Positions 7,613 through 29,940 are shown, counted from the first letter of the stretch. The stretch is DNA of 64,000 nucleotides from Minisyncoccia bacterium (GCA_050011835.1 JBEKII010000001.1:22473-86472); one strand, 5' to 3'. Translations and numbers: made by a program. Notes: a model not told the origin generated them from the letters alone.

Positions 7613-9223
7613 ATGAATAAAGATACCAATAAAATCAAATACTTTATTTACGCCCGAAAGTCATCGGAGAGCGAAGACCGACAGGTGCAATCTATTGATG
7701 ACCAAATAAATCGGCTCAAAAAGTTTGCCAGCGATTTTAATCTGGATATTAAAAAGACCTATACCGAGGCGAAATCGGCAAAGAAACCGAATAATCGCCC
7801 TATTTTTGATGAGATGATGGAGCGGATTGAAAAGGGCGAAGCGGACGGAATTTTATGTTGGCAGATAAATCGTCTCTCCCGTAATCCAATTGATAGCGGC
7901 AAATTAAGTTGGTTCCTGCAACGAGGAATACTTAAATCAATCCAGACCATAGACCGTCAATATCTACCAGAAGACAATGTATTGATTTTCAGTGTTGAAA
8001 GCGGTGTAGCCAATCAATACATTTTGGATTTAAGCAAGAATACCAAACGGGGTATGCTCTCCAAGCTTGAAAAGGGTTGGCAAACGGGAATAGCACCGCT
8101 TGGCTATCTCAACGATAAAGAAAATAAAATTATCATCAATGACCCAGAACGATTTAACCTTATCCGCAAAATGTGGGATTTAATGCTTACAGGCAGTTAC
8201 ACACCACCAAAGATTTTGGATATTGCGAATAAGGAGTGGGGTTTTCGGACAAGGAAGTTTAAACGAATGGGTGGCAATGAATTATCCCGAAGCGGTATCT
8301 ATAAGATTTTTACGAGTTTGTTTTACGCGGGGATAATTGAAAATGCAGGGGTGCAATACGAAGGACAGCACGAAAAAATGATTACGCTTGAAGAATATGA
8401 CCGAGTGCAAATGCTTATTGGCAGAAAAGGTAAACCAAGACCAAAACAACACAAGTTTGCTTTCACTGGGTCTATACGGTGTGGTGTATGTGGCTGTCTT
8501 TATACGGCTGAAACAAAGAAAAGAATACTAAAATCAGGAGAAATACACGAGCATACTTATTATCATTGCACGAGGAAAACAACAAAGATTAAGTGCAATC
8601 AACGGAAAAATATCCCAGAAGGCGATTTGGAAATAGCCATTGAGAAGGAGATAGAAAAATACACCATCCTGCCAGAGTTCTTGCAGTGGGCATTAGAGGG
8701 ATTAAATAAAAAGAACGATACCGAAATTGAGGACAGAACGAAGGTTTACGAAATGCGACACAAAAATTTGGTAGAAACCCAAAAGGAGTTGGATGAGCTT
8801 ACTAAAATGAGATACCGCCAGTTGATTGATGACGAAACCTTTATCAAAGAGAAGAACACGCTCCAGAGCAAAATCACCCAATTCAAAGAAAATCTGCGAG
8901 AAACAGAAACGCGAGCCGAGAAATGGCTTGAACTTACTGAAAAGACATTTGCATTTGCCGCTTATGCACGCAAAGCATTTACTACTGCAAAAGGAAAAGC
9001 AGGGTTAGAACTGAAGAAAGAAATCTTATTAGCACTCGGTAAAACGCCGATAATTAAAGACCAGAAGCTGATTATTGAACCGAATGAGTGGTTTGCAGAG
9101 ATACAAAAAAGCTATCCTGCGTTGGAGAGAGAATACTTAAGGTTAGAACCGAAAAATCCCCTTGTAAATCAAGGAGATTTTCCGATTTCTGACCCTATAT
9201 TCCGAACCGTGCTCCGCGGGTAG
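7613..9223 (+). CDS. Large serine recombinase (integrase) of the element
   Basis: Resolvase-type catalytic N-terminus YFIYARKSSESEDRQVQSIDDQ. Recombinase domain and C-terminal zinc ribbon CGVCGCLYTAE...HCTRK. The last codons overlap the 3' end of tRNA-Asn. Confidence 0.8.
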   Translation: MNKDTNKIKYFIYARKSSESEDRQVQSIDDQINRLKKFASDFNLDIKKTYTEAKSAKKPNNRPIFDEMMERIEKGEADGILCWQINRLSRNPIDSGKLSWFLQRGILKSIQTIDRQYLPEDNVLIFSVESGVANQYILDLSKNTKRGMLSKLEKGWQTGIAPLGYLNDKENKIIINDPERFNLIRKMWDLMLTGSYTPPKILDIANKEWGFRTRKFKRMGGNELSRSGIYKIFTSLFYAGIIENAGVQYEGQHEKMITLEEYDRVQMLIGRKGKPRPKQHKFAFTGSIRCGVCGCLYTAETKKRILKSGEIHEHTYYHCTRKTTKIKCNQRKNIPEGDLEIAIEKEIEKYTILPEFLQWALEGLNKKNDTEIEDRTKVYEMRHKNLVETQKELDELTKMRYRQLIDDETFIKEKNTLQSKITQFKENLRETETRAEKWLELTEKTFAFAAYARKAFTTAKGKAGLELKKEILLALGKTPIIKDQKLIIEPNEWFAEIQKSYPALEREYLRLEPKNPLVNQGDFPISDPIFRTVLRG

Positions 9224-9283
9224 GATTCGAACCTACAACCAACTCCTTAACAGGGAGCTGCTCTACCATTGAGCTACCGCGGA
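9212..9283 (-). tRNA. tRNA-Asn (anticodon GTT)
   Basis: Reverse complement TCCGCGGTAGCTCAATGGTAGAGCAGCTCCCTGTTAAGGAGTTGGTTGTAGGTTCGAATCCTACCCGCGGAG folds as a cloverleaf. Acceptor TCCGCGG/CCGCGGA, anticodon loop CTGTTAA, T-loop TTCGAAT. No encoded CCA. Confidence 0.85.
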
Positions 9284-9356: not shown

Positions 9357-9845
9357 ATGGTTTTAACGCTTACTAGTTCTGCATTTGAAAATAACGGGGT
9401 CATACCCGCGAAATATACGTGCGATGGAAGTCGTGAACTCTCGCCTCCGCTTATGATTAGTGATGCGCCGGAAGGAACAAAATCATTCGTGCTTATCGTG
9501 GATGACCCCGACATCCCAGAAGTGGTAAAAAAATCTCACGGCCTTGAGGCCTTTGACCACTGGGTGCTTTATAATATCCCCGTGCCAGTGGGTGGAGAGG
9601 TGGAAGTTCCAGCGGGCGCTACCCCCGGCTCTACAGGATTAAACAGCGCCGGCGGTATGAAATACATCAGTCCCTGTCCACCGTCGCAATATGAGCCGAA
9701 AGAGCATCGCTATGTTTTTACTTTGTATGCGCTGAATGAAATGCTTCATTTTCCAAATGCACCGACTGCACGACAAGTGCGCGATGCGTTGACGCCGTTT
9801 TTGCTCGCAAAAACAAAACTTATTGGCCGTTATTCCAGACCATGA
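9357..9845 (+). CDS. YbhB/YbcL-family PEBP (Raf-kinase-inhibitor-like) protein
   Basis: LTSSAFENNGVIPAKYTCDG...SPPL...PEGTKSFVLIVDDPDIP...HWVLYNIP is the PEBP signature. The start is taken at the ATG at 9357. Confidence 0.65.
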   Translation: MVLTLTSSAFENNGVIPAKYTCDGSRELSPPLMISDAPEGTKSFVLIVDDPDIPEVVKKSHGLEAFDHWVLYNIPVPVGGEVEVPAGATPGSTGLNSAGGMKYISPCPPSQYEPKEHRYVFTLYALNEMLHFPNAPTARQVRDALTPFLLAKTKLIGRYSRP

Positions 9846-10204
9846 ATATCACCATCAAGGCAACGAAGTATACATTTACGCCCGAAGACGAAGCATTTAT
9901 AGAAAAGAAGCTCGCGGCTCCTCTGCGTCTTCTTGGAGATGCGAGCGACACGGCGTTACTTGAGATAGAAATAGGGAAAGCGCCGCCAGAAGGACGTTCG
10001 GCAGAACCGTACCGCCTTGTTGCGAATCTTATAGTAGGCGGCAAGGTTTTCCACGCTGAAGCGGTGAAGCCGTCGCCCGAGAGCGCTGCGGACAGGGTTC
10101 GTAGCGAGCTTGAGGCGGAGATACGGCGTTCGCGCGGGCGCGCGCGACGGCTCATCAAGCGCGGTGGCGCGACGGTCAAACGAATGCTGCGCTTCGGCCG
10201 TTAA
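9842..10204 (+). CDS. Ribosome hibernation/RaiA-HPF-like protein (tentative)
   Basis: N-terminus MNITIKATKYTFTPEDEAFIEKKL resembles the HPF/YfiA start (MxIxIxGRHxExTxALRxYxEEKL). Overlaps the previous gene by 4 bp. Confidence 0.4.
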   Translation: MNITIKATKYTFTPEDEAFIEKKLAAPLRLLGDASDTALLEIEIGKAPPEGRSAEPYRLVANLIVGGKVFHAEAVKPSPESAADRVRSELEAEIRRSRGRARRLIKRGGATVKRMLRFGR

Positions 10205-10207
10205 AGT

Positions 10208-10283
10208 TCGCCGGCAAACAAAAAAAGAAAACGCTCGGGCCGCTAGGCCAATACTACATACTTTTTCTTGTTTGCCGGCTCTC
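10208..10283. terminator. Long inverted repeat between convergent genes (probable bidirectional terminator)
   Basis: gccggcaaacaa...ttgtttgccggc forms a 12-bp perfect stem. Its loop holds the inner palindrome gggccgctaggcc, and A/T runs flank both sides. Confidence 0.4.
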
Positions 10284-11180
10284 TGTATATATTATTTCGT
10301 GTTTCCCCTCGGGAATAACGCGCTCAATGATGAATTTTTCGTTTTTGAATGAAGCTGCGGTTATTTTAATTCTTTTTCCATTTTCTATAAAATATGTGCC
10401 AATAGTGTCGGCGTACGTGCGATATTTATTCCAATTTTCTTGCGCCGTCGCAGTGAGCGACAAAAGGCCGTCTTCTTTTTTAATTTTGTGCGCATACGAA
10501 ACTTGCGAGGAATCCTGCGCGATTGGTGCGATGTCGCCGCACAGATATGCGGGAAGGGTATCAACGAGCAGTTGTGCGCCTTGAGCAATGAGTCGCGGAC
10601 GCACCTCGCGCGCAGTCTCGTTTGGAGCGATGTCCATTTCTTTTTGCGCAAGAATCGCACCCGCATCAATTTCGTGCACCATCTCCTGGATGGTTACTCC
10701 GGTTGTTGAATCACCCGCGAGAAGCGCGGATTCAAGCGGCGTCGCGCCGCGATACTTGGGCAAGAGCGAATAATGAACATTAATGACGCCTTTAGGGAAA
10801 GCGGCGATAAGTTCGTTGGAAAATATTTTGCCGAATGCGACCACAATTGCGTAATCGCATTTATAGGCGCGAATCGCGGCAATTGTCTCGTCATCAAGAG
10901 TTCTCGGTGTGAGAACAGGCATGTCGTGTTCGAGCGCAAAAGTTTTTGTTTCAGAAGGCGCGAGCGCGAGCCCGCGGCCCTTAGGAGCATCCGGCGAAGT
11001 CACGACGACGGCGGGCGCGAAGCCTCGTTCAATAAGCACTGCAAGCGTGTCGCTCGCCACGGCGGGAGTGCCGAAAAATGCGAAGCGAAGCGAAGTCCCT
11101 TCACTCGCTTTCGAGTGTTGCCGGACGAATTTAAGAAGCGGGATTTTGGTCATGGGTGACGTGAACGAGATGTTCAGCAT
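10254..11180 (-). CDS. fmt: Methionyl-tRNA formyltransferase
   Basis: LRFAFFGTP...VVTSPDAPKGRG...INVHYSLLPKYRGATP. Classic def-fmt pair. The true start may be the internal ATG at 11153. Confidence 0.85.
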   Translation of the reverse strand: MLNISFTSPMTKIPLLKFVRQHSKASEGTSLRFAFFGTPAVASDTLAVLIERGFAPAVVVTSPDAPKGRGLALAPSETKTFALEHDMPVLTPRTLDDETIAAIRAYKCDYAIVVAFGKIFSNELIAAFPKGVINVHYSLLPKYRGATPLESALLAGDSTTGVTIQEMVHEIDAGAILAQKEMDIAPNETAREVRPRLIAQGAQLLVDTLPAYLCGDIAPIAQDSSQVSYAHKIKKEDGLLSLTATAQENWNKYRTYADTIGTYFIENGKRIKITAASFKNEKFIIERVIPEGKHEIIYTESRQTRKSM

Positions 11181-11682
11181 GGTCAGTGAAGAGCGCGCCG
11201 TTCAAGTGGTCAATTTCGTGCTCAAATATCTGAGCCATAAGGCCGCCGCCGCCACGACTAAATCGTGAGCCATCAAGGCGACGGGCGGCGATGGTGACGC
11301 GTTCATGCCGATTCGTTGTGCCATATACATCGCGAATAGAAAGACATCCTTCTTCTCCTTTCGCGCGCTTGCGGGAGGTCTTTATAATTTCAGGATTAAT
11401 ATATATTTCCACTTCAGGTTTAGGTACCGGTTTTGGCTGGAGAACGGTTTTTTCTTTCGCTGGGACGAGAGGAAGCGTGGCGCGGTCTTTCCGTACGATA
11501 AAAAGACGATAAGAAATATCTACTTGCGGCGCGGCGAGCGCGACACCCTCGGGCTTTACATCAAGTGCTTGGGTCATGTCATCAATGAGGCGCGTGAGCC
11601 ACACCGAGCCGAAGAGCTTCTCCGGCACGGGCTTTGCCGCTTCGCGTAATATTGGCGCACCATCTTGCACGATTTCTCTCAT
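11131..11682 (-). CDS. def: Peptide deformylase
   Basis: GVALAAPQV, EGCLS and HEIDHLNG motifs. Start taken at MREIVQDGAPILRE. Confidence 0.85.
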   Translation of the reverse strand: MREIVQDGAPILREAAKPVPEKLFGSVWLTRLIDDMTQALDVKPEGVALAAPQVDISYRLFIVRKDRATLPLVPAKEKTVLQPKPVPKPEVEIYINPEIIKTSRKRAKGEEGCLSIRDVYGTTNRHERVTIAARRLDGSRFSRGGGGLMAQIFEHEIDHLNGALFTDHAEHLVHVTHDQNPAS

Positions 11683-11787
11683 GTTCTCTAATTGTAGCAC
11701 AGTTGCTCGCAGAAAAAAGTTTTTTGAGAGCGTTTCACTTCGCTGCACTTAGCACATAGCACACTCTCAAAAATTTTTCCCGCTCGT

Positions 11788-12081
11788 TTAGCAGGGCGGA
11801 TGCTTTTTCGGGTCAATCTCCCACCAAAATTTTTTACCGAAGTTTTTTGCTTGGCTGCAAATACTCTTGAGATAATAGAGGTCGCGGGTCGGGATGCCTT
11901 CAAGTTCGGCACCGAGACGAGCCATGGAGAGAGGCGCGAGGCCGTCGTGCGCGCGAGAATAATTCAAGTGGCGGAGGAAGAAACGTATCAATTCGCCGCG
12001 CTCGGTTTTGCGCTTTTTCCCTCTCGGCGCTTCGGCTGCCTTTTTCTCAATGTCGGGAAGGATTTCGCGGATGGATTTCAT
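11788..12081 (-). CDS. Hypothetical small protein, translationally coupled to murA
   Basis: Its ATG sits immediately after the murA stop (TAAATG). A hairpin follows downstream (ttttgagag...ctctcaaaa, 11715-11775). Confidence 0.4.
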   Translation of the reverse strand: MKSIREILPDIEKKAAEAPRGKKRKTERGELIRFFLRHLNYSRAHDGLAPLSMARLGAELEGIPTRDLYYLKSICSQAKNFGKKFWWEIDPKKHPPC

Positions 12082-13380
12082 TTAATTCGTATGCGCTTCA
12101 ATGGAAGCTCCGAGATGTTGAAGCCGCACGACAATATCTTCATAACCGCGATTGATGCTGTAGACGTTGCGGAGCGTTGAATGTCCTTTTGCGGCGAGCA
12201 TTCCGACGAGGATGATAGTCGCGGGCCGGAGCGCCGGCGGGCAAATGACCTCGGCCGCTTTAAGTTCCGTCCGTCCCTCAATTGAAATGCGATGAGGATC
12301 ATGAAGAATAGTCACCGCGCCGAGACGGTCGAGCTCGGTGTAGTAAATTGCCCGCTTTTCATATACCCAATCGTGGATAAGCGTCGTACCTTTCGCCTGC
12401 GTGGCAATAACCGCGAAGAAGGGGAGGTTGTCTATGTTCAGTCCGGGATAGGGGCGCGCGTGAATCTTTTCGGGGAAGGCAGTTAGTTCTGATGGTTCAA
12501 GATGAATGTCTTTTAATTTTGTAATCCCATTTTCTGATAATCGGGGCTCTGATAATGTGAATCGTAACCCCATTTTCTCAAGAAGCAGTAACTCGACCTC
12601 AAGAAATTCTATGGGCGCATTCGCGATGGTGATGGCAGAGCCGGTAATGGCCGCCGCTGCGATGAAGAGCATTGCGTCGGTCGGATCCTCCGCGACGCTA
12701 TAAGAAACATCTTGATTGATAGAAGCGACGCCGCGTACCGTAAGCGTTGTTGAGCCGATGCCGTCAATCGAGACTCCAAGCGCCTTCAAGAAGCCGCATA
12801 CTTCCTGCACCTGATAATTTGCCGAGGCATATTTAATGCAAGATGTGCCGGGGATGCCCGCGGCGGCGAGAAGCGCGTTGATGGTCGCCGTATCGCTTGA
12901 TTCGTAGAGAATCACTTCTGCCGGATGAAGCCCCGCATACGCGATGTGATAACTTTCCGAACGTGCCTCTATCGCAACACCGAATTTTTCAAGCGCTAAA
13001 AGATGCGGACGGACAGAGCGCAGTCCAAGCGTGCAGCCACCCGATTGCGGCAGTTCGAATTTTTTGAACCAGTGGAGCAAAGGACCGATAAACATCAATA
13101 TGCTGCGGGTTTTCATCGCCGCACTCTTATCAATTGATTCCAGATTGATTTTTTTCGGCGGGACAATGACGACGTCGTGTCCACGCCACTTAACACTGAC
13201 ACCGATGGAACGCAGTACCTCAATCAAGCGGTTCACCTCCTCAATTTTCGGAACATTTCGGAGGGTCGTTTGACCGTGATTGAGAAGGGAAGCGGCGAAG
13301 AGTGCGACGGCGCCGTTCTTGGAGCGGCTCGTCGTGACGCTCCCCGAAAGTTTCTTTCCTCCTTCAATGGCGAAATTCAT
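12082..13380 (-). CDS. murA: UDP-N-acetylglucosamine 1-carboxyvinyltransferase
   Basis: MNFAIEGGKKLSGSVTTSRSKNGAVALFAASLL... is MurA-like over the full length. Start taken at the third Met. Confidence 0.85.
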   Translation of the reverse strand: MNFAIEGGKKLSGSVTTSRSKNGAVALFAASLLNHGQTTLRNVPKIEEVNRLIEVLRSIGVSVKWRGHDVVIVPPKKINLESIDKSAAMKTRSILMFIGPLLHWFKKFELPQSGGCTLGLRSVRPHLLALEKFGVAIEARSESYHIAYAGLHPAEVILYESSDTATINALLAAAGIPGTSCIKYASANYQVQEVCGFLKALGVSIDGIGSTTLTVRGVASINQDVSYSVAEDPTDAMLFIAAAAITGSAITIANAPIEFLEVELLLLEKMGLRFTLSEPRLSENGITKLKDIHLEPSELTAFPEKIHARPYPGLNIDNLPFFAVIATQAKGTTLIHDWVYEKRAIYYTELDRLGAVTILHDPHRISIEGRTELKAAEVICPPALRPATIILVGMLAAKGHSTLRNVYSINRGYEDIVVRLQHLGASIEAHTN

Positions 13381-13419
13381 TCCTTCTTGCATACGGAGTA
13401 TCGTACCATTACTATACAA

Positions 13420-14448
13420 ATGATGTCTTTCTTTTCTCCCAAGCTCGGCATTGATCTTGGAACAACTAACATTCTCGTTTTTGTGCCCGGCAAGGGCGTT
13501 GTGGTGAACGAACCGTCGGTCGTTGCCGTGGGAAAAGCGCGTGACAACAGGGGCGGTACGACCATCCTCGCCATAGGCGTTGAAGCGAAAAAAATGATTG
13601 GCCGCACTCCCGACGATATCATCGCTTATCGTCCAATGAAGGACGGTGTTATTGCCGATTATCGTGTCACCGAAGCGATGCTCCGTTATTTTATGAAGAA
13701 AGCGCTTGGACGGAATCCATTCAAGCCGACTGTGCTTATTTCCGTGCCCGCGAGTGTTACCTCAACCGAGAAGCGCGCGGTTATTGAAGCGGCGTTGAAA
13801 GCCGGAGCGCGGAACGCCTACGTGGTAAAAGAGCCTATACTCGCCGCCATCGGCGCAGGCATCCCCATTCACGAACCGATGGGACGCATGGTTGCGGATA
13901 TTGGCGGCGGCACGATAGATGTCGCCGTGATATCACTCGGCGGCATCGTCGCGTCAACGAGCGTGAAGTGCGCGGGGGATCGCCTTGACCGTGCGGTCGT
14001 TGACCACATTAAGAAACAACACAATCTCGTGATTGGCGACAAGACGGCGGAGGATTTGAAAATAAAAATCGGGGCGGCAGTACCGATGAATGAAGAACTT
14101 TCAATGCCGGTCAAGGGGCGCGACCTCATGAGCGGCTTGCCACGCACGGTTGATCTTTCCACTAACGATGTAGTGCAGGCGATGGCGCGGGAATTGCGCG
14201 AAATGACGCAAGCGATACGCAAGGTGCTGCAGGACACGCCACCCGAACTTGCCGCCGACATTATTGACAATGGCATTATCCTCACGGGCGGTTCTTCACA
14301 GTTGCGCCAGATGCCCGAGCTCGTCTACCGTCGCACCGGCGTTGCCGCGAAACTCGCGCAGGATCCGTATTTCTGCGTCGTGCGCGGTACCGGCGTCGCG
14401 CTGAAACATCTGGATACTTATCAAAAAAGCATTTTGGCGAAGCAATAA
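13420..14448 (+). CDS. mreB: Rod shape-determining actin homolog MreB (paralog 1)
   Basis: MMSFFSPKLGIDLGTTNILVFV...DIGGGTIDVAVIS...GGSSQLRQ. Divergent from murA. Confidence 0.85.
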   Translation: MMSFFSPKLGIDLGTTNILVFVPGKGVVVNEPSVVAVGKARDNRGGTTILAIGVEAKKMIGRTPDDIIAYRPMKDGVIADYRVTEAMLRYFMKKALGRNPFKPTVLISVPASVTSTEKRAVIEAALKAGARNAYVVKEPILAAIGAGIPIHEPMGRMVADIGGGTIDVAVISLGGIVASTSVKCAGDRLDRAVVDHIKKQHNLVIGDKTAEDLKIKIGAAVPMNEELSMPVKGRDLMSGLPRTVDLSTNDVVQAMARELREMTQAIRKVLQDTPPELAADIIDNGIILTGGSSQLRQMPELVYRRTGVAAKLAQDPYFCVVRGTGVALKHLDTYQKSILAKQ

Positions 14449-14469
14449 TATTGAAATAGAAAAATCGCA

Positions 14470-14510
14470 TGGCGGAGCTATTTCACACCATGCGATTTTT
14501 AAGGTTCAGA
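14470..14510. terminator. Bidirectional intrinsic terminator
   Basis: aatcgcatgg-...-ccatgcgatt hairpin flanked by A and T runs, between convergent genes. Confidence 0.5.
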
Positions 14511-15039
14511 ACTTGCCGCTTGCGCGGCGCATCTGAACTTTTTTTTGAAACCATTTTCTCCCCCCCAATAAATCAATGAGAGGAAAAAGAAAAATAAGGG
14601 TGATATCCGTCAGCACCTCTCGAGGCCGTGGAATACCACCGGTGCAGTGATGTTTCGCCTTAATCCCGTCGCGGCGGCAGATCCACCACACACGGGGATA
14701 ATGCAAAATTGAAGAAATGATAATCAATTCCGCATTCTTCTTTTTTGCATACTCATTTGCCACCTGCAGCTGTTCTATCGTCTCTTGCCCTTTCTTTACC
14801 TCAACAATGTTTTCTTTGTTGATGTTAATTTCAAGAGCCAGACGATAGAACTCCATTTCCGTTTTCTCCCCGTTAGCCTGAAAAGCGCTGACGAGAAGAA
14901 TTGTCGCTGCTGGCCAATCCTTCCGAGATAGAGACTCAGCTTTTACAAGACCAGTGTACCAATCTTGTTTCTCGGTCGGCCCAAACCGCCCCTTAGAAGA
15001 GGGGTTTTTTATGAGTGGAACTATGATTTTCTCTCGCAC
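14506..15039 (-). CDS. YdcF/ElyC (DUF218)-like protein (tentative)
   Basis: ELIIISSILHYPRVWW resembles the DUF218 core. Confidence 0.35.
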   Translation of the reverse strand: MREKIIVPLIKNPSSKGRFGPTEKQDWYTGLVKAESLSRKDWPAATILLVSAFQANGEKTEMEFYRLALEININKENIVEVKKGQETIEQLQVANEYAKKKNAELIIISSILHYPRVWWICRRDGIKAKHHCTGGIPRPREVLTDITLIFLFPLIDLLGGRKWFQKKVQMRRASGKF

Positions 15040-23418: not shown

Positions 23419-23460
23419 CTGTTGCACTCTCGCGCTACTCGCGTACAATGCGCACAACCT

Positions 23461-23934
23461 ATGGCTGACCTGCAAGATTCTGTCGTCTCACAAGAGAAAT
23501 TTGATGAGATGATAAAAGAATTGGAATATTTGAAAACAGTGCGGCGCACTGAAATCGCCAAAAATTTGGAGTACGCACGTTCACTCGGCGACCTTTCGGA
23601 GAATGCGGAATATCAAGAGGCACGCGACCTGCAGACCGCGACTGAAGAGCGCATCAAAAAGCTGGAAGATTTGGTGAAGAACACGAAAATTCTCACCGAT
23701 GGAAAAAAGAAAAACGAAGTCAGCTTCGATTCAAAGGTTTCTATTAAAAAAGAGGGAAGTACTGACGTGCACGAGTACACCATTGTTGGCAGCGAGGAGG
23801 CCGATATGCGCGTGAAAAAACTCTCGCACGTTTCTCCGCTCGGCGCCGCACTTATGGGAAAGAAAAAGGGAGACGTTTTTACTTTTGAGACCCCGACGGG
23901 GAAACAGACTTACATAATTGAAAAGGTGGCATAA
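23461..23934 (+). CDS. greA: Transcription elongation factor GreA
   Basis: GDLSENAEYQEARD motif. C-terminal FKBP-like domain. Confidence 0.85.
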   Translation: MADLQDSVVSQEKFDEMIKELEYLKTVRRTEIAKNLEYARSLGDLSENAEYQEARDLQTATEERIKKLEDLVKNTKILTDGKKKNEVSFDSKVSIKKEGSTDVHEYTIVGSEEADMRVKKLSHVSPLGAALMGKKKGDVFTFETPTGKQTYIIEKVA

Positions 23935-23940
23935 AGAAAA

Positions 23941-23977
23941 GGGCGGGAGACTTGGTCTCCCGCCCTTCGCCCTTTTT
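23941..23977. terminator. Bidirectional intrinsic terminator
   Basis: gggcgggagac-ttgg-tctcccgccc then cttttt. Upstream run aaagaaaa. Confidence 0.65.
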
Positions 23978-23982
23978 GTGCA

Positions 23983-24735
23983 TTATGCGCTGATTTTTTT
24001 CGGCATCATTCGTTTGATGACTTGGGCGATGACGAACGATGCGGCCATTGCAACGAGCAGAAAAGCCAAATAATATACAACATCATTCTGTCCGATTGTG
24101 AACGTTCTTGCGCCTTCACCCACAAACCCGCAGGTGAGTCCACCTGCGACGAATCCTGTAAGTCCGCTCGCAAGTCCGCCTGCGAGCAATCCCACGAGCA
24201 TACTTATTAAGCTAGTGCCGATGTTTGATGATTCTGTAAACAACGTGCCTATGAGCATGCTTATGGGTATTGCGGCGTAGAAAACGGAAAGCTTTTTTGC
24301 TCCTGCTCCAGATAGCAAGTTTATGATACTCGTTATTAAGATCAACAAAACCGGCATCCAGAGAAGTAATATGGAGAAGAGATAACTGTCATGAGGCTCG
24401 TTAAATTCTGTGGTCCTGCTTACGAACCATGCGCCATTATGGTACATCACAATCCTATCTACATGCATAATCTTTTCTTTGATCAGGGGAAAGGAAAACG
24501 AGGGAATTTGTTCCACTTTGTCCGTGGTCAACACTTTTTCCTTCTCGCCAGTGAAGAGTTTATATGCCTCATCGGCTGGGATTCCCGGCGGAACGTTGAA
24601 GGCAAGAATCACTTGCGTGATCTCCTTCGCGATGAGCGTTCCGTTTTGAATGATTACCTCGCGTTCGGCGCGAGCTGTGTTGCATACGACGAACACCGCC
24701 CAAATAGTTGCCATGACAAAGAACATTTTTCTCAT
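23983..24735 (-). CDS. Hypothetical secreted/membrane protein (paralog A). Signal peptide, ~110-aa domain, Gly-rich TM helices.
   Basis: MRKMFFVMATIWAVFVVCNTARAEREVI... Promoter TTGACA-N16-TATCAT on the minus strand (24794-24821). SD AAAGGAGG. Confidence 0.6.
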   Translation of the reverse strand: MRKMFFVMATIWAVFVVCNTARAEREVIIQNGTLIAKEITQVILAFNVPPGIPADEAYKLFTGEKEKVLTTDKVEQIPSFSFPLIKEKIMHVDRIVMYHNGAWFVSRTTEFNEPHDSYLFSILLLWMPVLLILITSIINLLSGAGAKKLSVFYAAIPISMLIGTLFTESSNIGTSLISMLVGLLAGGLASGLTGFVAGGLTCGFVGEGARTFTIGQNDVVYYLAFLLVAMAASFVIAQVIKRMMPKKISA

Positions 24736-24852
24736 TTCATTACCTCCTTTTTCGGCTTTTCAGGCCGAAATGAATTTTTATGCGTCTATAAATATGATAA
24801 TCTAAAAAGACATCTTGTCAAGCGTTGGTACGATTGAGAAGATGGCATAAAG

Positions 24853-24884
24853 AAAAAGGCGGGAGATTGCTCCCGCCTTTTTGG
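24853..24884. terminator. Bidirectional intrinsic terminator (copy of the 23941 element)
   Basis: ggcgggagattgctcccgcc then ttttt. Preceded by the same ggcataaagaaaa string. Confidence 0.6.
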
Positions 24885-24896
24885 TCCCGATGTCTA

Positions 24897-25526
24897 TTAT
24901 GACTTGTGGCAATCAGCCATATCAAGTGCCTTTTTCGTTTCCATTACGACATCCACAAGCTGGCCAATGATGAATGACACAGCTACGATCGTGAACAAGA
25001 AGAGAAAGTATTGTAAAACGCTTTTATAATCCTCTCTTACGAATAAGCACGCGAATAAGAGCGCAAAGGGTCCCGCGATCAGGATGTAAGAGAGAGACTT
25101 CATTCTCGTCCTTGCGTGGAATAACGGAACCATAATGCTCACTCCCAGAATCACCAAAATTGGTATCCAGAGAAATAATATAGAAACGCCATAACTGTTG
25201 TGGAATTCGTTGAGCTCCATGGTTTTATCCACAAACCATTTGCCGTTAGGATACGACACGGCTTTGTTCACATAGACAACCTTTACTTTGATCAAAGGAA
25301 AAGAAAATGAATACATCAGTCCCTCTTTTCCCCTGATCGGTATTTCCCTTATTCCCCCGGTAACCAACTTCTTCGCATCTTCGGTCGAGAGCTCCGGAGG
25401 AACGTGCCTCGCGAGAATTTTCACAAGCGTTTTGTCTCCAATGATTGCCTCGTGTTCAGCGCGGACGGTGTCGTACATAACGAGCACCATTACTACGATA
25501 ACCATTGCAAAGAACAATTTTTTCAT
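24897..25526 (-). CDS. Hypothetical secreted/membrane protein (paralog B)
   Basis: MKKLFFAMVIVVMVLVMYDTVRAEHEAI... aligns with paralog A. Minus-strand promoter TTGACA-N17-TATTCT (25564-25592). Confidence 0.6.
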   Translation of the reverse strand: MKKLFFAMVIVVMVLVMYDTVRAEHEAIIGDKTLVKILARHVPPELSTEDAKKLVTGGIREIPIRGKEGLMYSFSFPLIKVKVVYVNKAVSYPNGKWFVDKTMELNEFHNSYGVSILFLWIPILVILGVSIMVPLFHARTRMKSLSYILIAGPFALLFACLFVREDYKSVLQYFLFLFTIVAVSFIIGQLVDVVMETKKALDMADCHKS

Positions 25527-25621
25527 GACCTTCTCCTTTCATTAGGATTTGATTTCTGAAATGAGAATATGTAATTCAATATATTTTGTCAAGCGAAACA
25601 ACGGCGTGATACGATACATTT

Positions 25622-27187
25622 ATGTTGTGGGCCGATAGGATAGCAAGCGAGATACGAGATACGCGTAAACCGCGCGATGGGAAGAAATTTCTCATACGTG
25701 ACGAGAAGACGCTCTCCGGCCGCGTACATGTCGGGAGCATGCGCGGCGTCGCTATTCATGGTCTTATCTCGGAAGTTCTTGCGGAATACGGCATCGCGAA
25801 CGAATTTCGTTTTGAGCTCGGTGACTTTGATCCGTTTGATGCTGTGCCGAGTTATCTTGATTTCGGGAAATATAAGGAACATCTCGGTAAGCCGCTTTAT
25901 ACGGTCCCGAGCCCGGAATCGGGTTTTAAAAATTACGCGGAGTATTTTGGCGATGAATTTGTCGGGGTGCATAAAAAAGCCGGCTTCACGCCAAACTATT
26001 ATCGCGCGACTGAACTTTATCAGTCGGGGAAGATGGACGCATATATTAAAATCGCGCTTGAGCGCGCGAGCGAAGTGCGCCATATTCTGAAAGAGGTTTC
26101 GGGGTCTGAAAAAGATGAAACGTGGCTGCCCATTGCTGTTGTATGCGAGAAATGCGGAAAAATAATGACGACGCGCGCATATGATTTCAATGGCGATACT
26201 GTCGCGTATACGTGTGACCGTTCGCCCGATGAGTGCGTGCCGTGTGGGCACACCGGGCGCGTCGCGCCGTGGAGGGGCGCGGCGAAACTTTTTTGGAAAG
26301 TTGATTGGGCGGCAAAGTGGGCCGTGCAGGGCGTTGATATTGAGGGCGGCGGCAAGGACCACTCAACTAGAGGCGGCTCGCGCGATGTCGCGAATCATAT
26401 CGCGCACCAAATATTCAATTTTGAACCACCCTTTGACATCCCGTATGAATTTTTCCTCGTAGGCGGAAAGAAGATGTCTTCTTCAAAAGGCCGTGGAAGT
26501 TCTGCCAAAGACATTGCCGACCTTTTCCCGCCGCAGATTTTTCGCCTTGCTCTTATCGGGAGGGATATTCGCGAACAGATTGACGTAGACCCTTCAGGCG
26601 AATCGGTGCCGCGCCTTTACGATTGGTATGACGAACTCGCGAAGGGTGTGCGCGAAGGGAAGGCCGATGATTACTCGCGCCTCTATGCGCTCTGCGAGTT
26701 CCCGTCCAAACGCGCAGGGCTCTCCGCGCCGTGGTCTATGCGATTTCGCGAGGTGGCATTTATCGTTCAAATGCCGCATCTCTCGCTCGGCGGAGAAGCA
26801 GTGAGCGCAAGGGGCAGAGAATTAACGGACGATGAGGAACGCACGCTTATTGAGCGCGCGCGATATGCGAAGTTCTGGCTCGCGACATACGCGCCGGAGG
26901 AATTTAAATACGAATTGCAAAAAGAAATGCCGAAGATTGAGCTCTCGCAGACGCAAAAAAAGGCGCTTAAAGCGCTCGCCGATTTTCTTCAAGAGAGTGA
27001 ACGCTCGGGCGAAGAAATTCACGCGCGTCTTCACGAACTTAAAACCGAAATCCCCATATCGCCCCAGGAACTCTTCCAAGCGATTTACCGCATTTTCCTC
27101 AATCGCGATTCGGGCCCGAAGGCAGGATGGTTTCTCGCTGGCCTTCCGCGCGATTTTGTCATCGCGCGCCTTTCTGAATCAGTGTAA
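25622..27187 (+). CDS. lysK: Lysyl-tRNA synthetase, class I
   Basis: HVGSMRG (HIGH-like) and KMSSSKG (class-I LysRS KMSKS variant). Zinc-binding CxxC pairs. Confidence 0.8.
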   Translation: MLWADRIASEIRDTRKPRDGKKFLIRDEKTLSGRVHVGSMRGVAIHGLISEVLAEYGIANEFRFELGDFDPFDAVPSYLDFGKYKEHLGKPLYTVPSPESGFKNYAEYFGDEFVGVHKKAGFTPNYYRATELYQSGKMDAYIKIALERASEVRHILKEVSGSEKDETWLPIAVVCEKCGKIMTTRAYDFNGDTVAYTCDRSPDECVPCGHTGRVAPWRGAAKLFWKVDWAAKWAVQGVDIEGGGKDHSTRGGSRDVANHIAHQIFNFEPPFDIPYEFFLVGGKKMSSSKGRGSSAKDIADLFPPQIFRLALIGRDIREQIDVDPSGESVPRLYDWYDELAKGVREGKADDYSRLYALCEFPSKRAGLSAPWSMRFREVAFIVQMPHLSLGGEAVSARGRELTDDEERTLIERARYAKFWLATYAPEEFKYELQKEMPKIELSQTQKKALKALADFLQESERSGEEIHARLHELKTEIPISPQELFQAIYRIFLNRDSGPKAGWFLAGLPRDFVIARLSESV

Positions 27188-27278
27188 TAATAAAGAACAT
27201 ACCTTATAAAAACAGAAACCGCCCTTCAACGGTTTCCGTTGTGGACGGCGGACAATTTCGGTCGATTCCGATACAGGT

Positions 27279-27539
27279 TTATGGAATCAATTCTCGGAGA
27301 AAAAGAGGGAAGAATCTCTTTTCAATAAAGCGTATCCCCACCATGCAGAAAAGCCCCAAATAACAAATAAGAATCACCATCATAAACCGAACGAATATAT
27401 ACCGAGCTCGATAAAAACCATTCATACCTCTCGTTGTCCGGACGCTTATAAGAATTGCAGCCACTATAAAAATGGCGGCCACTACCCCATGATCAATGCC
27501 AATGATGGCTTGTGAGAGAGAATTTTGCATCACGGTCAC
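27279..27539 (-). CDS. Small membrane protein (hypothetical)
   Basis: Two TM helices. SD AAGGGGG. Confidence 0.4.
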   Translation of the reverse strand: MTVMQNSLSQAIIGIDHGVVAAIFIVAAILISVRTTRGMNGFYRARYIFVRFMMVILICYLGLFCMVGIRFIEKRFFPLFLRELIP

Positions 27540-27686
27540 CCCCTTCTTTTATTTTGATAGAACGTCTGGAACGAGAATGTCAGGCAGCACTGCTTTTGTC
27601 AAGTTATATATAAGGGGAACTATATAAGAAAAGCCGAGGTACACACAAAGTGTAATGCCTCGGCTTCGTAAAGGTCGCGAAACGCA

Positions 27687-28475
27687 CTAAGCTTTCTTCG
27701 CGGCCTTGGTCATCGCATCAAACCTGTTTTTCCAGTCATTGACCGCATGAGCAGCCCGCTTCTGAAGTTGATCAATGTGGGCGAAAATGTTGCGCACCTG
27801 TCGCTCGGTTACGTCATGCTCCTCGTACTTTTCGAGGAGGTTGCGAATGAGCGCACCGTTCTTATGGCTCAATGATGTATGAGTTTTTGTGAGATTCCTC
27901 TGAATCTCAGCAATACCCCCTACCGCCGACTTGCGACGTCCCGACAATTCTTTCTTGAGGCTCTCGTGCTCTACGCCGTGTATCTCGGCGGCTTTAGCAA
28001 CCGTAAGTCCGCCGTCGGTAACTGCTTCCTTGGCACGCAATAACTTCGCCCTTGAGACCTTGGATTGCACTTCATTAATATACCGCCGAGCCATTCCATG
28101 CGGAAGACAAAGCAATTCGCCGATACGTTTCTTCGCTTCACCGCGTTCGAGCAATAACATGATCGTATGCTCGGTATCTTGCTGGGTTGGTGGAAGCGAG
28201 CCGCCGAGATTTGCCTTGAATGCCGCAGCGATCAGTTCCGTCTCGTTGTGAATATCCACAACTTCAGCTTCAATCTCACTGATATTGTTCAGTTCATAGG
28301 CCTCAATCCTGTGCCGACCATCTATTATTTCATACTCGGGAGTGATTTTGATCGGGTCCAGTTTAATGCCATTTAGAATCAATTCGGCGAGAAACAGCGC
28401 GTGGTCTTGGTTCAGTGTCTTACGGACGAACAAGTTCGTTTTCAGATCCTTAATTTTAACCGTGACGATCTTCAT
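27687..28475 (-). CDS. ParB-like nuclease domain protein (ParB/Srx fold + HTH)
   Basis: IIDGRHRIEA (ParB N-terminal domain DGRHR motif). SD AAAGGAG 8 nt upstream. Confidence 0.7.
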   Translation of the reverse strand: MKIVTVKIKDLKTNLFVRKTLNQDHALFLAELILNGIKLDPIKITPEYEIIDGRHRIEAYELNNISEIEAEVVDIHNETELIAAAFKANLGGSLPPTQQDTEHTIMLLLERGEAKKRIGELLCLPHGMARRYINEVQSKVSRAKLLRAKEAVTDGGLTVAKAAEIHGVEHESLKKELSGRRKSAVGGIAEIQRNLTKTHTSLSHKNGALIRNLLEKYEEHDVTERQVRNIFAHIDQLQKRAAHAVNDWKNRFDAMTKAAKKA

Positions 28476-28496
28476 GCTCTTTGCTCCTTTCTGATG

Positions 28497-28751
28497 CTAA
28501 TTAGTGTTGCTGTTTTCAGGCGGTTTTGTAAATCGTGCGTGTTTGGCGCGCCATCCGGCACTTTTCTCCCTCACTTGGGACAACACCACGCGCATTCCAG
28601 GCTCGGGCCAGTCCTCCTCCTGCCAAACTTCAGGGTTCAGCGAGAAAGTGACAGAGCCCATTTCTTGAGAATGTGCGACTGCATAAGGACCATACTTGCC
28701 GTTGTGAATAATTTTTCCAACGACAGCCTGGTATTCCTTGCCTTTTGTCAT
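28497..28751 (-). CDS. Hypothetical small protein (84 aa), translationally coupled
   Basis: SD AAAGGAGAGGG. The ATG at 28751 overlaps the stop of the upstream gene (cTGATGa). Confidence 0.5.
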   Translation of the reverse strand: MTKGKEYQAVVGKIIHNGKYGPYAVAHSQEMGSVTFSLNPEVWQEEDWPEPGMRVVLSQVREKSAGWRAKHARFTKPPENSNTN

Positions 28752-29290
28752 CAGCCCTCTCCTTTCTGGAGAATTTTGTATCCACTCTTTCTTTTTTCCA
28801 GTTCCTCCTTTCTCCTTTTCCACTCGTTCCACATCTTTTGCCCCTTTTCCTCACTTGCGTTCCAATCACCTCGTAGAATTTCGTAAAGTTGCGAGGATGA
28901 AGCGTAACCGAGCAGAATGGTGGCTTGTTCGCCAGAAAGAAGTCCATATCCGACAAGTTCTGCAAAATTTCGCCGGACTTTTGGCATTCTTTCTAGCTCA
29001 ATTATGCGATAGCCGTTCATGTCGAGGAAGCACATCAATTTGATAAGTTCTTCCCCGATAGGGAACATTCCGGTGTTGTGTAGCCAACGAGTTACGGAAT
29101 GAATAGTAACTCCGCAAAAGTCGGCTATGGGTTTTTTGACCTGAGTGGCTCTCCGAGTACCTTTTGGTATACGTGAGTTAAAACTCATGCCAAAATGTTC
29201 GAGACACTCTTCAAAGTGGCCCCGAAATACCTCCTGTTTTTCTTCGTCATTCACAATGAATTCCTCCTTTCTATAATTTGAATTTGTCAA
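28751..29290 (-). CDS. HTH DNA-binding protein (hypothetical regulator)
   Basis: HTH segment IADFCGVTIHSVTRWLHN. The likely real start is the GTG at 29252 behind SD AAAGGAGGAA. The track starts at a TTG at 29290. Confidence 0.5.
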   Translation of the reverse strand: MTNSNYRKEEFIVNDEEKQEVFRGHFEECLEHFGMSFNSRIPKGTRRATQVKKPIADFCGVTIHSVTRWLHNTGMFPIGEELIKLMCFLDMNGYRIIELERMPKVRRNFAELVGYGLLSGEQATILLGYASSSQLYEILRGDWNASEEKGQKMWNEWKRRKEELEKRKSGYKILQKGEG

Positions 29291-29420
29291 AAATCAGTTT
29301 CAACCAAGAAAGCCTCCTCCTTGGTTATTCTTTTCTATCACAAAGAACATTTTGTGTCAATACTACGTACTATCAATTTTTTCTTGATTTTTCGGCATGG
29401 GGATAACCTCACTAGGACGA

Positions 29421-29480
29421 GTGGGGGGAAGTGGAATATAATAACCTGCTAGTGGGAAGAAGTGGAAATGGGAGTGGTGG
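29421..29480 (+). promoter_or_regulatory. Putative MraZ operator: phased GTGG(G) direct repeats
   Basis: GTGG at 29421, 29431, 29452, 29462 and 29474, with ~10-bp phasing, immediately upstream of mraZ. Confidence 0.5.
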
Positions 29481-29511
29481 CCCATTTCTCCCTCTCACCC
29501 GCTTATTTTCC

Positions 29512-29940
29512 ATGTTTATTGGCGAATATTTGCACATCATTGACCCCAAGAATCGTATCTCGCTTCCGGCAAAGTTCCGGAAGGGTCTCGGCCGTGTCGT
29601 CGTTCTGACGCGCGGCCTTGACCATTGCCTCTTCGTCTATCCAAAAAGGACGTGGGAGAAAGAGGCGATTGCGCGAGCGGCGCATGCGAGCGGAACGGCG
29701 GCCGGCCGCGGACTCGCACGCCTGTTTCTCGCCGGGGCGATGGAGGCGGAGGTTGATGCCGCCGGGCGCGCGCTTATACCCGACCATTTGAAGAGTTTTG
29801 CCGGCCTTGGTTCAAAGGTGGTTATTGCCGGTGTCGCAAACCGAATAGAAATTTGGGACGAAGCGGCATGGCAGACGTACACAATTGCGATTGAACGAGA
29901 CGCTGATGCATTTGCCGAGAAACTCGGCAATGTTGATTGA
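29512..29940 (+). CDS. mraZ: Transcriptional regulator MraZ
   Basis: MFIGEYLHIIDPKNRISLPAKFR...VVLTRGLDHCLFVYP. Confidence 0.85.
   Translation: MFIGEYLHIIDPKNRISLPAKFRKGLGRVVVLTRGLDHCLFVYPKRTWEKEAIARAAHASGTAAGRGLARLFLAGAMEAEVDAAGRALIPDHLKSFAGLGSKVVIAGVANRIEIWDEAAWQTYTIAIERDADAFAEKLGNVD

Follow-up and report, generated by a model that had tools for sequence, protein, structure and literature searches.

What are four small genes doing between lysK (25622-27187) and mraZ (29512-29940), where they break up a region of housekeeping genes? The question concerns the minus strand at positions 27279-29290 of a 64,000-nucleotide (nt) stretch of DNA, called the window hereafter, from a metagenome-assembled genome (MAG) of the Minisyncoccia (Parcubacteria, candidate phyla radiation, CPR); proteins of the window are recorded at NCBI as ABSB00_00290 and ABSB00_00295. 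An earlier note on this DNA had read the four open reading frames (ORFs), g1 to g4, as one operon with a ParB-like nuclease, possibly of plasmid or phage origin or engaged in defence. Our answer is that three of the four form a conserved unit. In the explanation that we prefer, with confidence a little short of even, this unit would be a self-contained, horizontally acquired cassette that encodes a nucleoside triphosphate (NTP)-gated DNA-binding regulatory module of the orphan-ParB kind, similar in type to KorB/KorA. The reading frames are the following (aa, amino acids; HTH, helix-turn-helix).

28751-29254 (GTG start, 167 aa) or 28751-29290 (TTG start), minus strand: g1, two-HTH protein with conserved H/C/C/C
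28497-28751, minus strand: g2, 84-aa OB-fold protein, cold-shock-domain-like
27687-28475, minus strand: g3, orphan ParB-like protein
27279-27530 (ATG) or 27279-27539 (GTG), minus strand: g4, orphan 83-aa ORF with two hydrophobic segments

The conserved unit

On reading the sequence, each of the four ORFs is preceded by a GGAG-type purine run resembling a Shine-Dalgarno (SD) sequence, 4-9 nt 5' of the start, and the stop of g1 overlaps the start of g2 in the TGATG at 28749-28753, both as the earlier note had described. The spacing between g2 and g3 is 21 nt. The extent of the operon is a different matter. Directly after g3 stands a hairpin of -25.9 kcal/mol (z = -3.19) that is followed by UUUUCUU, and 0 of 200 shuffled sequences fold as well.

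27623..27667 (hairpin 27630-27667, then U-run), minus strand: predicted intrinsic terminator ending the cassette, from RNA folding

A simple terminator scan missed this hairpin, probably owing to an internal bulge in the stem. A TTGACA box lies between it and g4. In tblastn searches of 45 cassette loci and 79 lysK loci, g4 found no match except one identical fragment; it forms a protein cluster of one member, is not called in the NCBI annotation, and exceeds a Kyte-Doolittle window value of 2 at residues 8-30 and 44-62. Because of the terminator after g3, and because g4, an orphan, accompanies the trio in none of the other cassette loci, the four-gene operon is rejected in favour of a conserved unit of three genes, g1-g2-g3. 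The g4 ORF sits in the inserted block yet outside the conserved cassette.

How constant is this unit? The order g1-g2-g3 is kept in about 40 of the 45 other loci that carry g3 relatives, from diverse Parcubacteria. When all flanking ORFs were clustered against each other, only the three cassette genes were shared, the next neighbour family occurring in 7 loci. The flanks differ by lineage and are all housekeeping, including transfer RNA (tRNA) synthetases, SecA/SecDF, ribosomal proteins, RNase III/SMC and queuosine genes. Across about 45 lineages the trio proteins have 40-70% identity, with the same three intact ORFs recurring alone. At L013, L036, L039, L127 and L130, g1 is directly followed by g3; because such pairs occur without g2, the obligate core is g1 plus g3, and g2 is the usual third member. 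Among 185,579 genomes, one for each species, 41 loci came to light, in Nomura-, Lloyd-, Zambryski-, Vogel-, Uhr-, Magasanik- and Doudnabacteria and in one Microgenomates genome; the search relied on conserved peptide patterns, and 41 is a lower bound. So sporadic an occurrence speaks for an accessory element and against a core gene. No curated family or defence model in Pfam, PHROGs, NCBIfam or PADLOC covers the g1-g2-g3 set. Several MAG records bear organism names unfit for a Parcubacteria-type locus (L014, L024, L036 and L039 as Gammaproteobacteria, L015 as Methylomirabilis, and many as Saccharibacteria); these are probably placeholder or mis-binned labels from automated submission.

Acquisition and mobile-element link

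The surroundings of the window copy indicate that it was acquired. A metagenome scan with the window LysK returned 79 loci, mostly at 67-83% identity, and 49 of them include mraZ as well as the end of lysK, the genes running PBP-like gene, lysK, mraZ, rsmH, pbp. None of these 49 syntenic relatives has g1, g2 or g3, and in 29 of them the lysK-mraZ spacer measures 133-209 nt, against 2324 nt in the window. Comparison with the relatives' spacers by blastn shows homology only at 27216-27248 on the left and from about 29383-29398 onward on the right. The block in between has a GC content of 45.7%, as compared with 52.8% for lysK and 56.6% for mraZ (52.8-56.6% over lysK, mraZ and rsmH).

27249..29382, no strand: inserted block (g4 plus the g1-g2-g3 cassette) against the lysK-mraZ backbone of relatives, from blastn, spacer length and GC

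Since the 49 relatives keep the junction without the cassette, 29 of them with the short spacer, this lower-GC block of 2.1 kb is an acquired insertion, accessory and not part of the lineage core. The earlier description of an accessory module that interrupts a housekeeping region is thereby borne out, by the intact junction and low GC as well as by the rarity of the module among species genomes.

As to the source, a 107-kb IMG/VR contig encodes a full-length g1 immediately followed by g3 (49% identity), and its genes match the PHROG major head protein, dNMP kinase, polynucleotide kinase and HD hydrolase. On a second, high-GC IMG/VR contig of 61 kb, a g3-like gene (39%) is surrounded by genes for RecT, helicase and HNH proteins. 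Real g3 relatives occur on only these 2 of 2.9 million IMG/VR contigs, and g2 was not found on viral contigs. The 72,556 plasmids of PLSDB gave no tblastn match to the cassette, and the 50,697 phage records of INPHARED gave one weak match, to the N-domain only. Because the g1-g3 pair sits on the 107-kb phage-like contig there is some link to mobile elements, and phage or mobile-element ancestry is the best reading; of the two origins proposed earlier, the phage has this contig in its favour and the plasmid has none of the PLSDB entries. Recent transfer, sought as excess similarity, left no signal at L028 and L038, the two loci with several housekeeping genes in common with the window: identity there is 36-51% for the cassette and 29-68% for the housekeeping proteins, a similar divergence.

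g3 is a divergent ParB-fold protein

The AlphaFold2 model of g3 (predicted local distance difference test, pLDDT, 90.8) consists of an alpha/beta ParB/Srx N-domain at residues 1-90, an HTH of three helices (98-153), a small pair of helices (159-178) and, at 188-261, a long antiparallel helical hairpin that forms a coiled coil. The top Foldseek matches in the PDB are ParB, Noc, Spo0J and KorB, bound to cytidine triphosphate (CTP) or cytidine diphosphate, together with pNOB8 ParB-N, at E-values of 5e-7 to 1e-5 over 180-250 columns. Foldseek probability is 1.00 for ParB, Noc, KorB, PadC, sulfiredoxin and serine kinase alike, but the last two match the N-domain only (first 80-105 residues) at E 1e-3 or weaker, which is 1000-fold weaker than the clamps. 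Among the viral models of BFVD, phage proteins of 250-300 aa named 'ParB/Sulfiredoxin' give the best E-value, 8.4e-10. At the sequence level the signals are PHROG 3264 at 2.4e-6, Pfam ParB_N at E=0.08 (13.4 bits against a cut-off of 26.3) and TIGR00180 at 14.5 against 58.45; Pfam HTH_ParB did not match g3, and there was no ParB among its PDB sequence matches. We found 215 homologous clusters, 50-71% identical and of about 265 aa. g3 is a divergent branch of the ParB fold.

The DGRHR motif that the earlier note had pointed out occupies residues 52-56. Its G53, R54 and R56 do not vary among 118 homologues, and R18 and N89 are likewise invariant. GxxR (Box II, the P motif) is the nucleotide phosphate-binding motif of the ParB-CTPase fold (PMC12704722), and it is kept in g3 as G53-R-H-R56. 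A profile of g3 aligned by hhalign to B. subtilis Spo0J, weakly (P=0.0025) and with a Spo0J sequence that is approximate, pairs NLFV-R18 with NPYQPR, G53-R-H-R56 with G-E-R-R, and A88-N89 with E111-N112. The NTP specificity of orphan ParBs is not predictable from sequence or from AlphaFold3 (PMC12704722).

Does g3 belong to a partition system? The statement that it has no ParA partner is upheld: no ORF above 100 aa within the 64 kb has the deviant Walker-A motif KGGxGK[ST], no ATPase gene neighbours the roughly 45 cassette loci, and the parS palindrome TGTTNCACGTGAAACA has 0 matches in the window at up to 3 mismatches. Since g3 begins two residues before its first strand, there is no space for an N-terminal ParA-contact peptide. 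Moreover, L130 holds a canonical ParB 1.7 kb from its g1-g3 pair, so that g3 is an additional, specialised, paralogue-like protein and not the host ParB. That canonical gene (8326-9264, 312 aa, ParB_N plus HTH_ParB, PF02195 plus PF17762) lies on a 180-kb contig with no adjacent ParA called.

g1 is the constant partner

g1 accompanies g3 throughout, in trios and in pairs, the phage-like contig included. A word-indexed search returned 91 homologues, almost all of 235-270 aa, and an exhaustive profile search of 1.84 billion representatives returned 1163, 779 and 252 at E-values of at most 1e-3, 1e-10 and 1e-30, respectively; nearly all of the 150 best matches listed are full-length and 240-270 aa long. 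The alignment shows an N-terminal helix, FRGHxEEC, in this family; C16 and C46 never vary, and at least 90% of the sequences keep H12 and C74. The His and three Cys form a possible metal or redox site. Two HTH-like segments are indicated by weak Pfam matches in some members (HTH_3, HTH_17, Crp, HTH_23), and the best match of the g1 profile among PDB sequences is an Xre-like HTH protein at E=0.034. Attempts to assign g1 and g2 to families through Pfam, PHROGs, NCBIfam, PADLOC and PDB profiles gave generic HTH matches only.

The family ends in an amphipathic helical domain of about 80 aa (IMEGLLxLLEE ... ILRLSAxLSxLSSRL). An in-frame internal deletion of about 80 codons has removed this C-terminal domain from the window copy, so that the protein stops after the KERKEEL helix, while the final codons, the SD sequence of g2 and the TGATG junction are spared (alignments A1 and A4). 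Such a truncation is the exception among the relatives seen.

g2 and its embedded inverted repeat

The AlphaFold2 model of g2 (pLDDT 82) is a five-stranded OB barrel. Its top Foldseek matches in the PDB are cold-shock proteins, cold-shock domains (CSDs), IF1 and S1, with E-values of 6e-3 to 7e-2 and TM scores of 0.5-0.7. g2 had no Pfam match even at E<=1, CSD included, none in PHROG, NCBIfam or PADLOC, and none among PDB sequences, any cold-shock protein included. The RNP1 and RNP2 motifs are not recognisable, and a basic tail, KKRAGWRAKH, is conserved. At the divergent locus L131 a true cold-shock protein gene (2178-2375, PF00313, 65 aa) stands immediately upstream of g1, besides the cassette g2.

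The K-R-A-G-W-R-A codons of g2 coincide with a GC-rich inverted repeat, of which the window has a degenerate copy.

28546..28563, minus strand: degenerate copy of the conserved GC-rich inverted repeat inside g2, from the consensus over the K-R-A-G-W-R-A codons

The family consensus, G CGY GCY GGN TGG CGY GC, would form a 7-bp G/C stem with a 4-nt loop. Each of 24 loci has a single exact copy, located within g2 in every case, and the flanks have none. Synonymous choice is strongly biased in the stem: the first Arg is CGY in 25 of 29 cases, as against 36% elsewhere in the cassette (P=4e-8), the second Arg in 27 of 32 (P=3e-8), and Ala is GCY in 29 of 32 (P=2e-5). The third bases of the loop Gly and of the following Ala are free, and the bias in the stem codons is seen in genomes from 36 to 59% GC. 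The C or T opposite G in the stem fits RNA pairing; the element could also be a DNA inverted repeat that tolerates transitions. In the window an R-to-S change has introduced 2 mismatches, leaving a 5-bp stem. A search of 27000-29700 against Rfam 15 gave no match at E<=1 to this element or to the leader described below.

Promoter, leader and start of g1

The elements upstream of g1 were counted in 39 non-identical cassette loci, which also served for the start codons.

29332..29360 (TTGACA 29355-29360, 17 nt, TG-n-TAGAAA 29332-29340), minus strand: putative cassette promoter, from sequence reading
29301..29327, minus strand: predicted 5' stem-loop at the start of the cassette mRNA (RNAfold -14.6 kcal/mol, z = -2.7)
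29285..29291, minus strand: YTTGA(A/C)A box, placed after the leader hairpin and before the SD sequence, from conservation

The region upstream of g1 resembles a near-consensus sigma-70 promoter (TTGACA-17-TGnTAnnnT), and TTGAC[AGT]-N16-19-TAnnn[TA] is present there in 28 of the 39 loci, compared with 3.5% of random 200-nt windows. A leader hairpin stands at the same place in about 20 of 32 loci, with differing sequence and frequent G-U pairs; in the window leader stem the SD-like AAGGAGG pairs with CUUUCUUGG. The YTTGA(A/C)A box occurs within 75 nt before the g1 start in 19 of the 39 loci, against a background of 4.4% (binomial P about 5e-16, the loci not being independent). Judged by these sequence features, the cassette would have its own strong promoter, a structured leader and a terminator, and the conserved cis elements imply that its expression is probably regulated.

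The g1 start is more likely the GTG at 29254 than the TTG at 29290, because the TTG falls within the conserved non-coding TTTGACA box and the GTG is the NCBI call, with GGAGG 8 nt upstream. GTG is used as the g1 start in 20 of the 39 loci. In 13 of the 39 (L003, L007, L010, L013, L015, L017, L018, L020, L024, L025, L029, L038 and L040) this GTG is embedded in AUGUGA, a minimal AUG-UGA start-stop overlapping the real start codon, which could act as a translational throttle. The start context in the window is CATTGTGAAT at 29251-29260.

The lysK-mraZ junction

Two features border the insertion.

27216..27248, no strand: hairpin terminator downstream of lysK, the left edge of the variable site, about 91% shared with L065 and L072
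29398..29511, plus strand: conserved mraZ (dcw) promoter region, right of the insertion, 75-84% identical to the relatives' spacers

At L048 the junction holds 5.3 kb (9563-14860) that encode a 948-aa secreted protein, an ArsR-like HTH protein and a PD-(D/E)XK-like protein, and the lysK-mraZ inserts of other relatives measure 0.45-1.7 kb. Since the cargo here differs among relatives, the junction, which immediately precedes the dcw promoter, is a site of variable accessory cargo in the lineage. The spacer is 1022 nt in L050, L053, L054, L055, L058 and L105 and 1719 nt in L073, and smaller uncharacterised ORFs are also present at L063, L096, L100 and L113. L065 and L072, which share the left junction of the window, have a different, single small minus-strand gene, and by eye also a short match to the right junction (window 29350-29382) around a minus-strand TTGACA (TGTCAATAC.ACGTAC); it looks as if cargo had been swapped between fixed ends.

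Transposon-like ends were considered and dropped: although a 12-nt inverted repeat (27554-27565, 29365-29376) flanks the trio, shuffled controls yield repeats at least as long as the best ones that flank the cassette in 40 loci. Integration targeted to tRNA genes was likewise set aside, with only 3-4 loci adjoining a tRNA. The cassette abuts tRNA genes at L001 (8893-8965, Arg), L015 (3250-3402, Pro/Gly) and L016 (4868-4940, Arg), which is not general and may hint at occasional tRNA-proximal insertion in these three lineages. A recombinase is not part of the cassette and neighbours it only at the L003-type locus.

The mraZ promoter region contains GGGGATAAC and repeated GTGGG/GTGGA boxes, and is left intact by the insertion. 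At 29398-29511 and in the L051-L126 spacers, a conserved DnaA-box-like TGTGGATAAC/GGGGATAAC is followed by GTGGG/GTGGA direct repeats around a TATAAT-like box; the repeats are presumably MraZ operator repeats at the dcw promoter. A second insertion adjoins the first, at 23419-25621 (2.2 kb, 44.8% GC) between the PBP-like gene and lysK. It holds two paralogous membrane or secreted proteins with similar N-termini, on minus-strand ORFs 23983-24735 (250 aa) and 24897-25526 (209 aa). Neither has a tblastn match in the 79 lysK loci, where the gap is about 0.5-0.7 kb in the loci compared.

A possible mechanism and the points against it

Then, how might the three proteins work together? In the mechanism that we propose, g3 would dimerise through its C-terminal hairpin while its HTH reads a specific DNA site, and nucleotide bound at the N-domain would lead to closing and spreading on DNA, as in ParB, Noc, KorB and BisD. 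g1 would be a sequence-specific co-regulator that locks or loads the clamp, as KorA and TrbA do for KorB, and it would probably autoregulate the cassette through the YTTGAMA box next to the ribosome-binding site. g2 would bind single-stranded nucleic acid; a candidate target is the GC-rich hairpin within the g2 coding sequence, some 70 nt before g3 begins, through which it might tune g3 expression. Alternatively, the GC-rich inverted repeat might be a DNA loading site. In sum, the module, which now stands alone in CPR chromosomes, would silence or regulate target DNA.

Several points weigh against this proposal. The nucleotide binding, DNA binding and protein contacts are what we infer from fold and synteny. 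g1 has no detectable similarity to KorA or TrbA; its profile, run against PDB chains, returned neither, though the KorB-KorA co-complex 8qa9 is in the PDB. No operator or parS-like palindrome recurs in the cassette, its flanks or the window, the single GC-rich repeat in g2 excepted. In the weak alignment to the approximate Spo0J sequence, the catalytic Glu of Box III (ENxxR) falls on Ala88 of g3 (KAN, not EN), and because of this substitution hydrolysis and clamp cycling may differ or be absent. For the GC-rich element, an RNA hairpin, a DNA site and a codon-level coincidence are not fully separated by the sequence data: covariation gives no support to a hairpin, as the columns are too conserved, and the case for it is the synonymous-site bias. 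The proposal itself takes the window copy to be probably impaired, or partly degenerate, because its g1 has lost the C-terminal domain and its g2 element is weakened.

Alternative explanations

A broader version of the same idea is distinctly less probable and, as a whole, unlikely. It holds that g1-(g2)-g3 would be an undescribed autonomous class of NTP-gated DNA clamps, specific to CPR/Patescibacteria and their phages, in which a ParB-fold clamp works with a double-HTH partner that senses metal or redox state, with an OB-fold protein and with a unique GC-rich loading site or RNA switch in g2, and which would be a portable gene-silencing or exclusion device in minimal genomes.

The main rival, somewhat less probable again, is that the module recognises invading DNA and silences or damages it, that is, anti-phage or anti-mobile-element defence or superinfection exclusion, and that it spread through the protection of its hosts. 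The module is compatible with such a role. Its patchiness (41 of 185,579 species genomes, 0 of 49 close relatives), a variable site that holds other cargo elsewhere, for example the PD-(D/E)XK-like gene in L048, the homologous pair on a phage-like contig, and the compact, coupled operon would all suit it. On the other hand, PADLOC-DB 2.0 contains 0 defence families that match any of the four proteins at E<=0.1, no effector such as a nuclease, NADase, pore or protease is recognisable, and all inspected loci are flanked by housekeeping genes, not by defence islands. The defence context that had been suggested before is left neither shown nor excluded by these results. Furthermore, defence overlaps the explanation that we prefer, since a clamp that silences foreign DNA counts as both.

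It is improbable that the cassette is a decaying remnant of a phage or mobile element, consisting of early regulatory or partition genes without function for the cell, although such a description may apply to this particular copy. The window g1 lacks the roughly 80 C-terminal residues present in nearly all of its more than 252 relatives, the g2 nucleotide element is degraded here, GC is below that of the flanks, and a pair is found on the phage-like contig. What a neutral remnant would not be expected to do is keep three intact ORFs, invariant motifs, a promoter and constrained synonymous sites over about 45 lineages, and in two comparable loci the divergence tracks that of housekeeping proteins.

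An addiction module of the toxin-antitoxin kind is much less credible. Here one product would be toxic, as the ParB-fold ATPase toxin ToxB is, and the others would neutralise it and autoregulate. A small, translationally coupled and probably autoregulated operon with a patchy distribution would agree with this, and a ParB-fold toxin is on record (bioRxiv 10.64898/2026.05.05.722872). In that preprint ToxB is reported to be without DNA-binding capability; g3 keeps its HTH and dimerisation domain, and because it keeps the DNA-binding domain a ToxB-like role is less likely. In addition, g3 is the last and largest gene, pairs without g2 occur, and no toxin or antitoxin family in Pfam, PHROG, PADLOC or NCBIfam matches.

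Slightly weaker still is the suggestion, made in the earlier note, of a stand-alone ParB/Srx-fold nuclease, in which g3 would cut DNA and g1 would repress g3. Some ParB/Srx proteins, such as Osa, are reported to be DNases, and both the Pfam/PHROG name 'ParB-like nuclease' and the DGRHR motif invite the idea. The predicted structure speaks for another role: g3 has the N-domain, HTH and dimerisation layout of the ParB, Noc and KorB clamps, its best matches span 180-250 columns with the HTH included, and Srx-only proteins cover only the first 80-105 residues at 1000-fold weaker E-values. The G-x-x-R of the motif is the phosphate-binding motif of the fold (PMC12704722). On the model, then, g3 would be no stand-alone nuclease, its best match being CTP-dependent DNA clamps, and 'nuclease domain' is a database name, not a result. 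That g3 is an ordinary chromosomal partition or nucleoid-occlusion protein of the lineage is scarcely credible. Its fold is like that of ParB and Noc and its gene neighbours the cell-division (dcw) cluster, but 49 syntenic relatives lack it, it has no ParA, parS or N-terminal ParA peptide, it coexists with a canonical ParB in L130, and it takes a different position in every lineage, which makes the dcw adjacency specific to this genome.

Significance and relation to known systems

It has lately become clear that CTP switches of the ParB fold serve regulation in general and not chromosome segregation alone (KorB, Noc, VirB, BisD, ToxB), and every new partner arrangement of ParB has so far revealed a new use of the DNA clamp. 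The cassette adds a compact, conserved 2-kb arrangement in which an orphan ParB is joined by two families that Pfam, PHROG and PADLOC do not describe; g1 is matched at E<=1e-30 by at least 250 clusters at 50% identity. Its hosts are CPR bacteria, whose accessory genes and mobile elements are poorly understood. It is also tractable: its three proteins are small and soluble, its promoter and leader are defined, and there is a single candidate cis site.

With canonical ParB/Spo0J and Noc, g3 shares an N-terminal ParB/Srx domain with GxxR, a central HTH and C-terminal dimerisation (PDB 7bnr, 7nfu, 6t1f, 1vz0). It differs in its identity of 16-21%, a sub-threshold ParB_N and no HTH_ParB, in having no ParA, parS or ParA-contact peptide, and in that relatives do not conserve it and that it can occur alongside a true ParB. 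The archaeal segregation module AspA-ParB-ParA of pNOB8 is likewise a three-gene arrangement of a small DNA-binding adaptor and a ParB N-domain protein (5k5d, E 9e-6, 254 columns), but the cassette is without the ParA motor and the partner folds are unrelated. The best structural match overall is with the phage 'ParB/Sulfiredoxin' proteins of 250-300 aa (BFVD; PHROG 3264, 1033, 12047), which agree with g3 in size and in N-domain plus HTH, although they are only 11-22% identical to it and are themselves uncharacterised. As for g2, it has the size and five-stranded barrel of cold-shock, S1 and IF1 domains, with a TM score of 0.55-0.73 to CspA, CspB and CspE; it departs from them in lacking a Pfam CSD match, in Foldseek E-values of 6e-3 or weaker, and in the basic tail KKRAGWRAKH.

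KorB of plasmid RK2 is a ParB-family CTP clamp that is locked by the small HTH proteins KorA and TrbA (PMC11790492, PMC13584720). The cassette resembles this system in pairing a ParB-fold-plus-HTH protein with a separate, co-operonic HTH protein, in a regulatory role without dependence on ParA, and in its mobile-element setting, and the KorB chains 8qa8 and 8qa9 are among the structural matches of g3 (E 7e-6 to 5e-5). It is unlike it in the g1 family, which at about 250 aa, with two HTH, His/Cys3 and a C-terminal helical domain, has no similarity to KorA or TrbA; in its middle gene, which encodes an OB-fold protein and not the ParA homologue IncC; in the absence of repeated palindromic operators; and in g3 itself, whose dimerisation domain is a helical hairpin and whose Box III, by the weak Spo0J alignment, would read KAN and not EN.

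Orphan ParBs are common, often linked to mobile elements, and keep GxxR while often losing Box III (Kaljevic et al. 2025, PMC12704722); BisD, for instance, is a ParB-like CTP clamp that regulates genes on the integrative element ICEclc (PMC12409273). The terms Patescibacteria and cold shock are both absent from the main text of PMC12704722. With these proteins, among them BisD (PMC12409273) and VirB, g3 has in common a ParB-CTPase fold outside parAB, a mobile-element link and a probably divergent Box III, and its role is probably regulatory rather than in segregation. What sets it apart is that its ParB fold is not fused to a new domain and is instead tied to two conserved, separate partners. 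Orphan ParBs are already known to be widespread. Among the orphan ParB-fold modules, g1-g2-g3 is a real, conserved and uncharacterised cassette that brings in two undescribed partner families together with an embedded cis element, and it adds to them a compact, testable system from the CPR.

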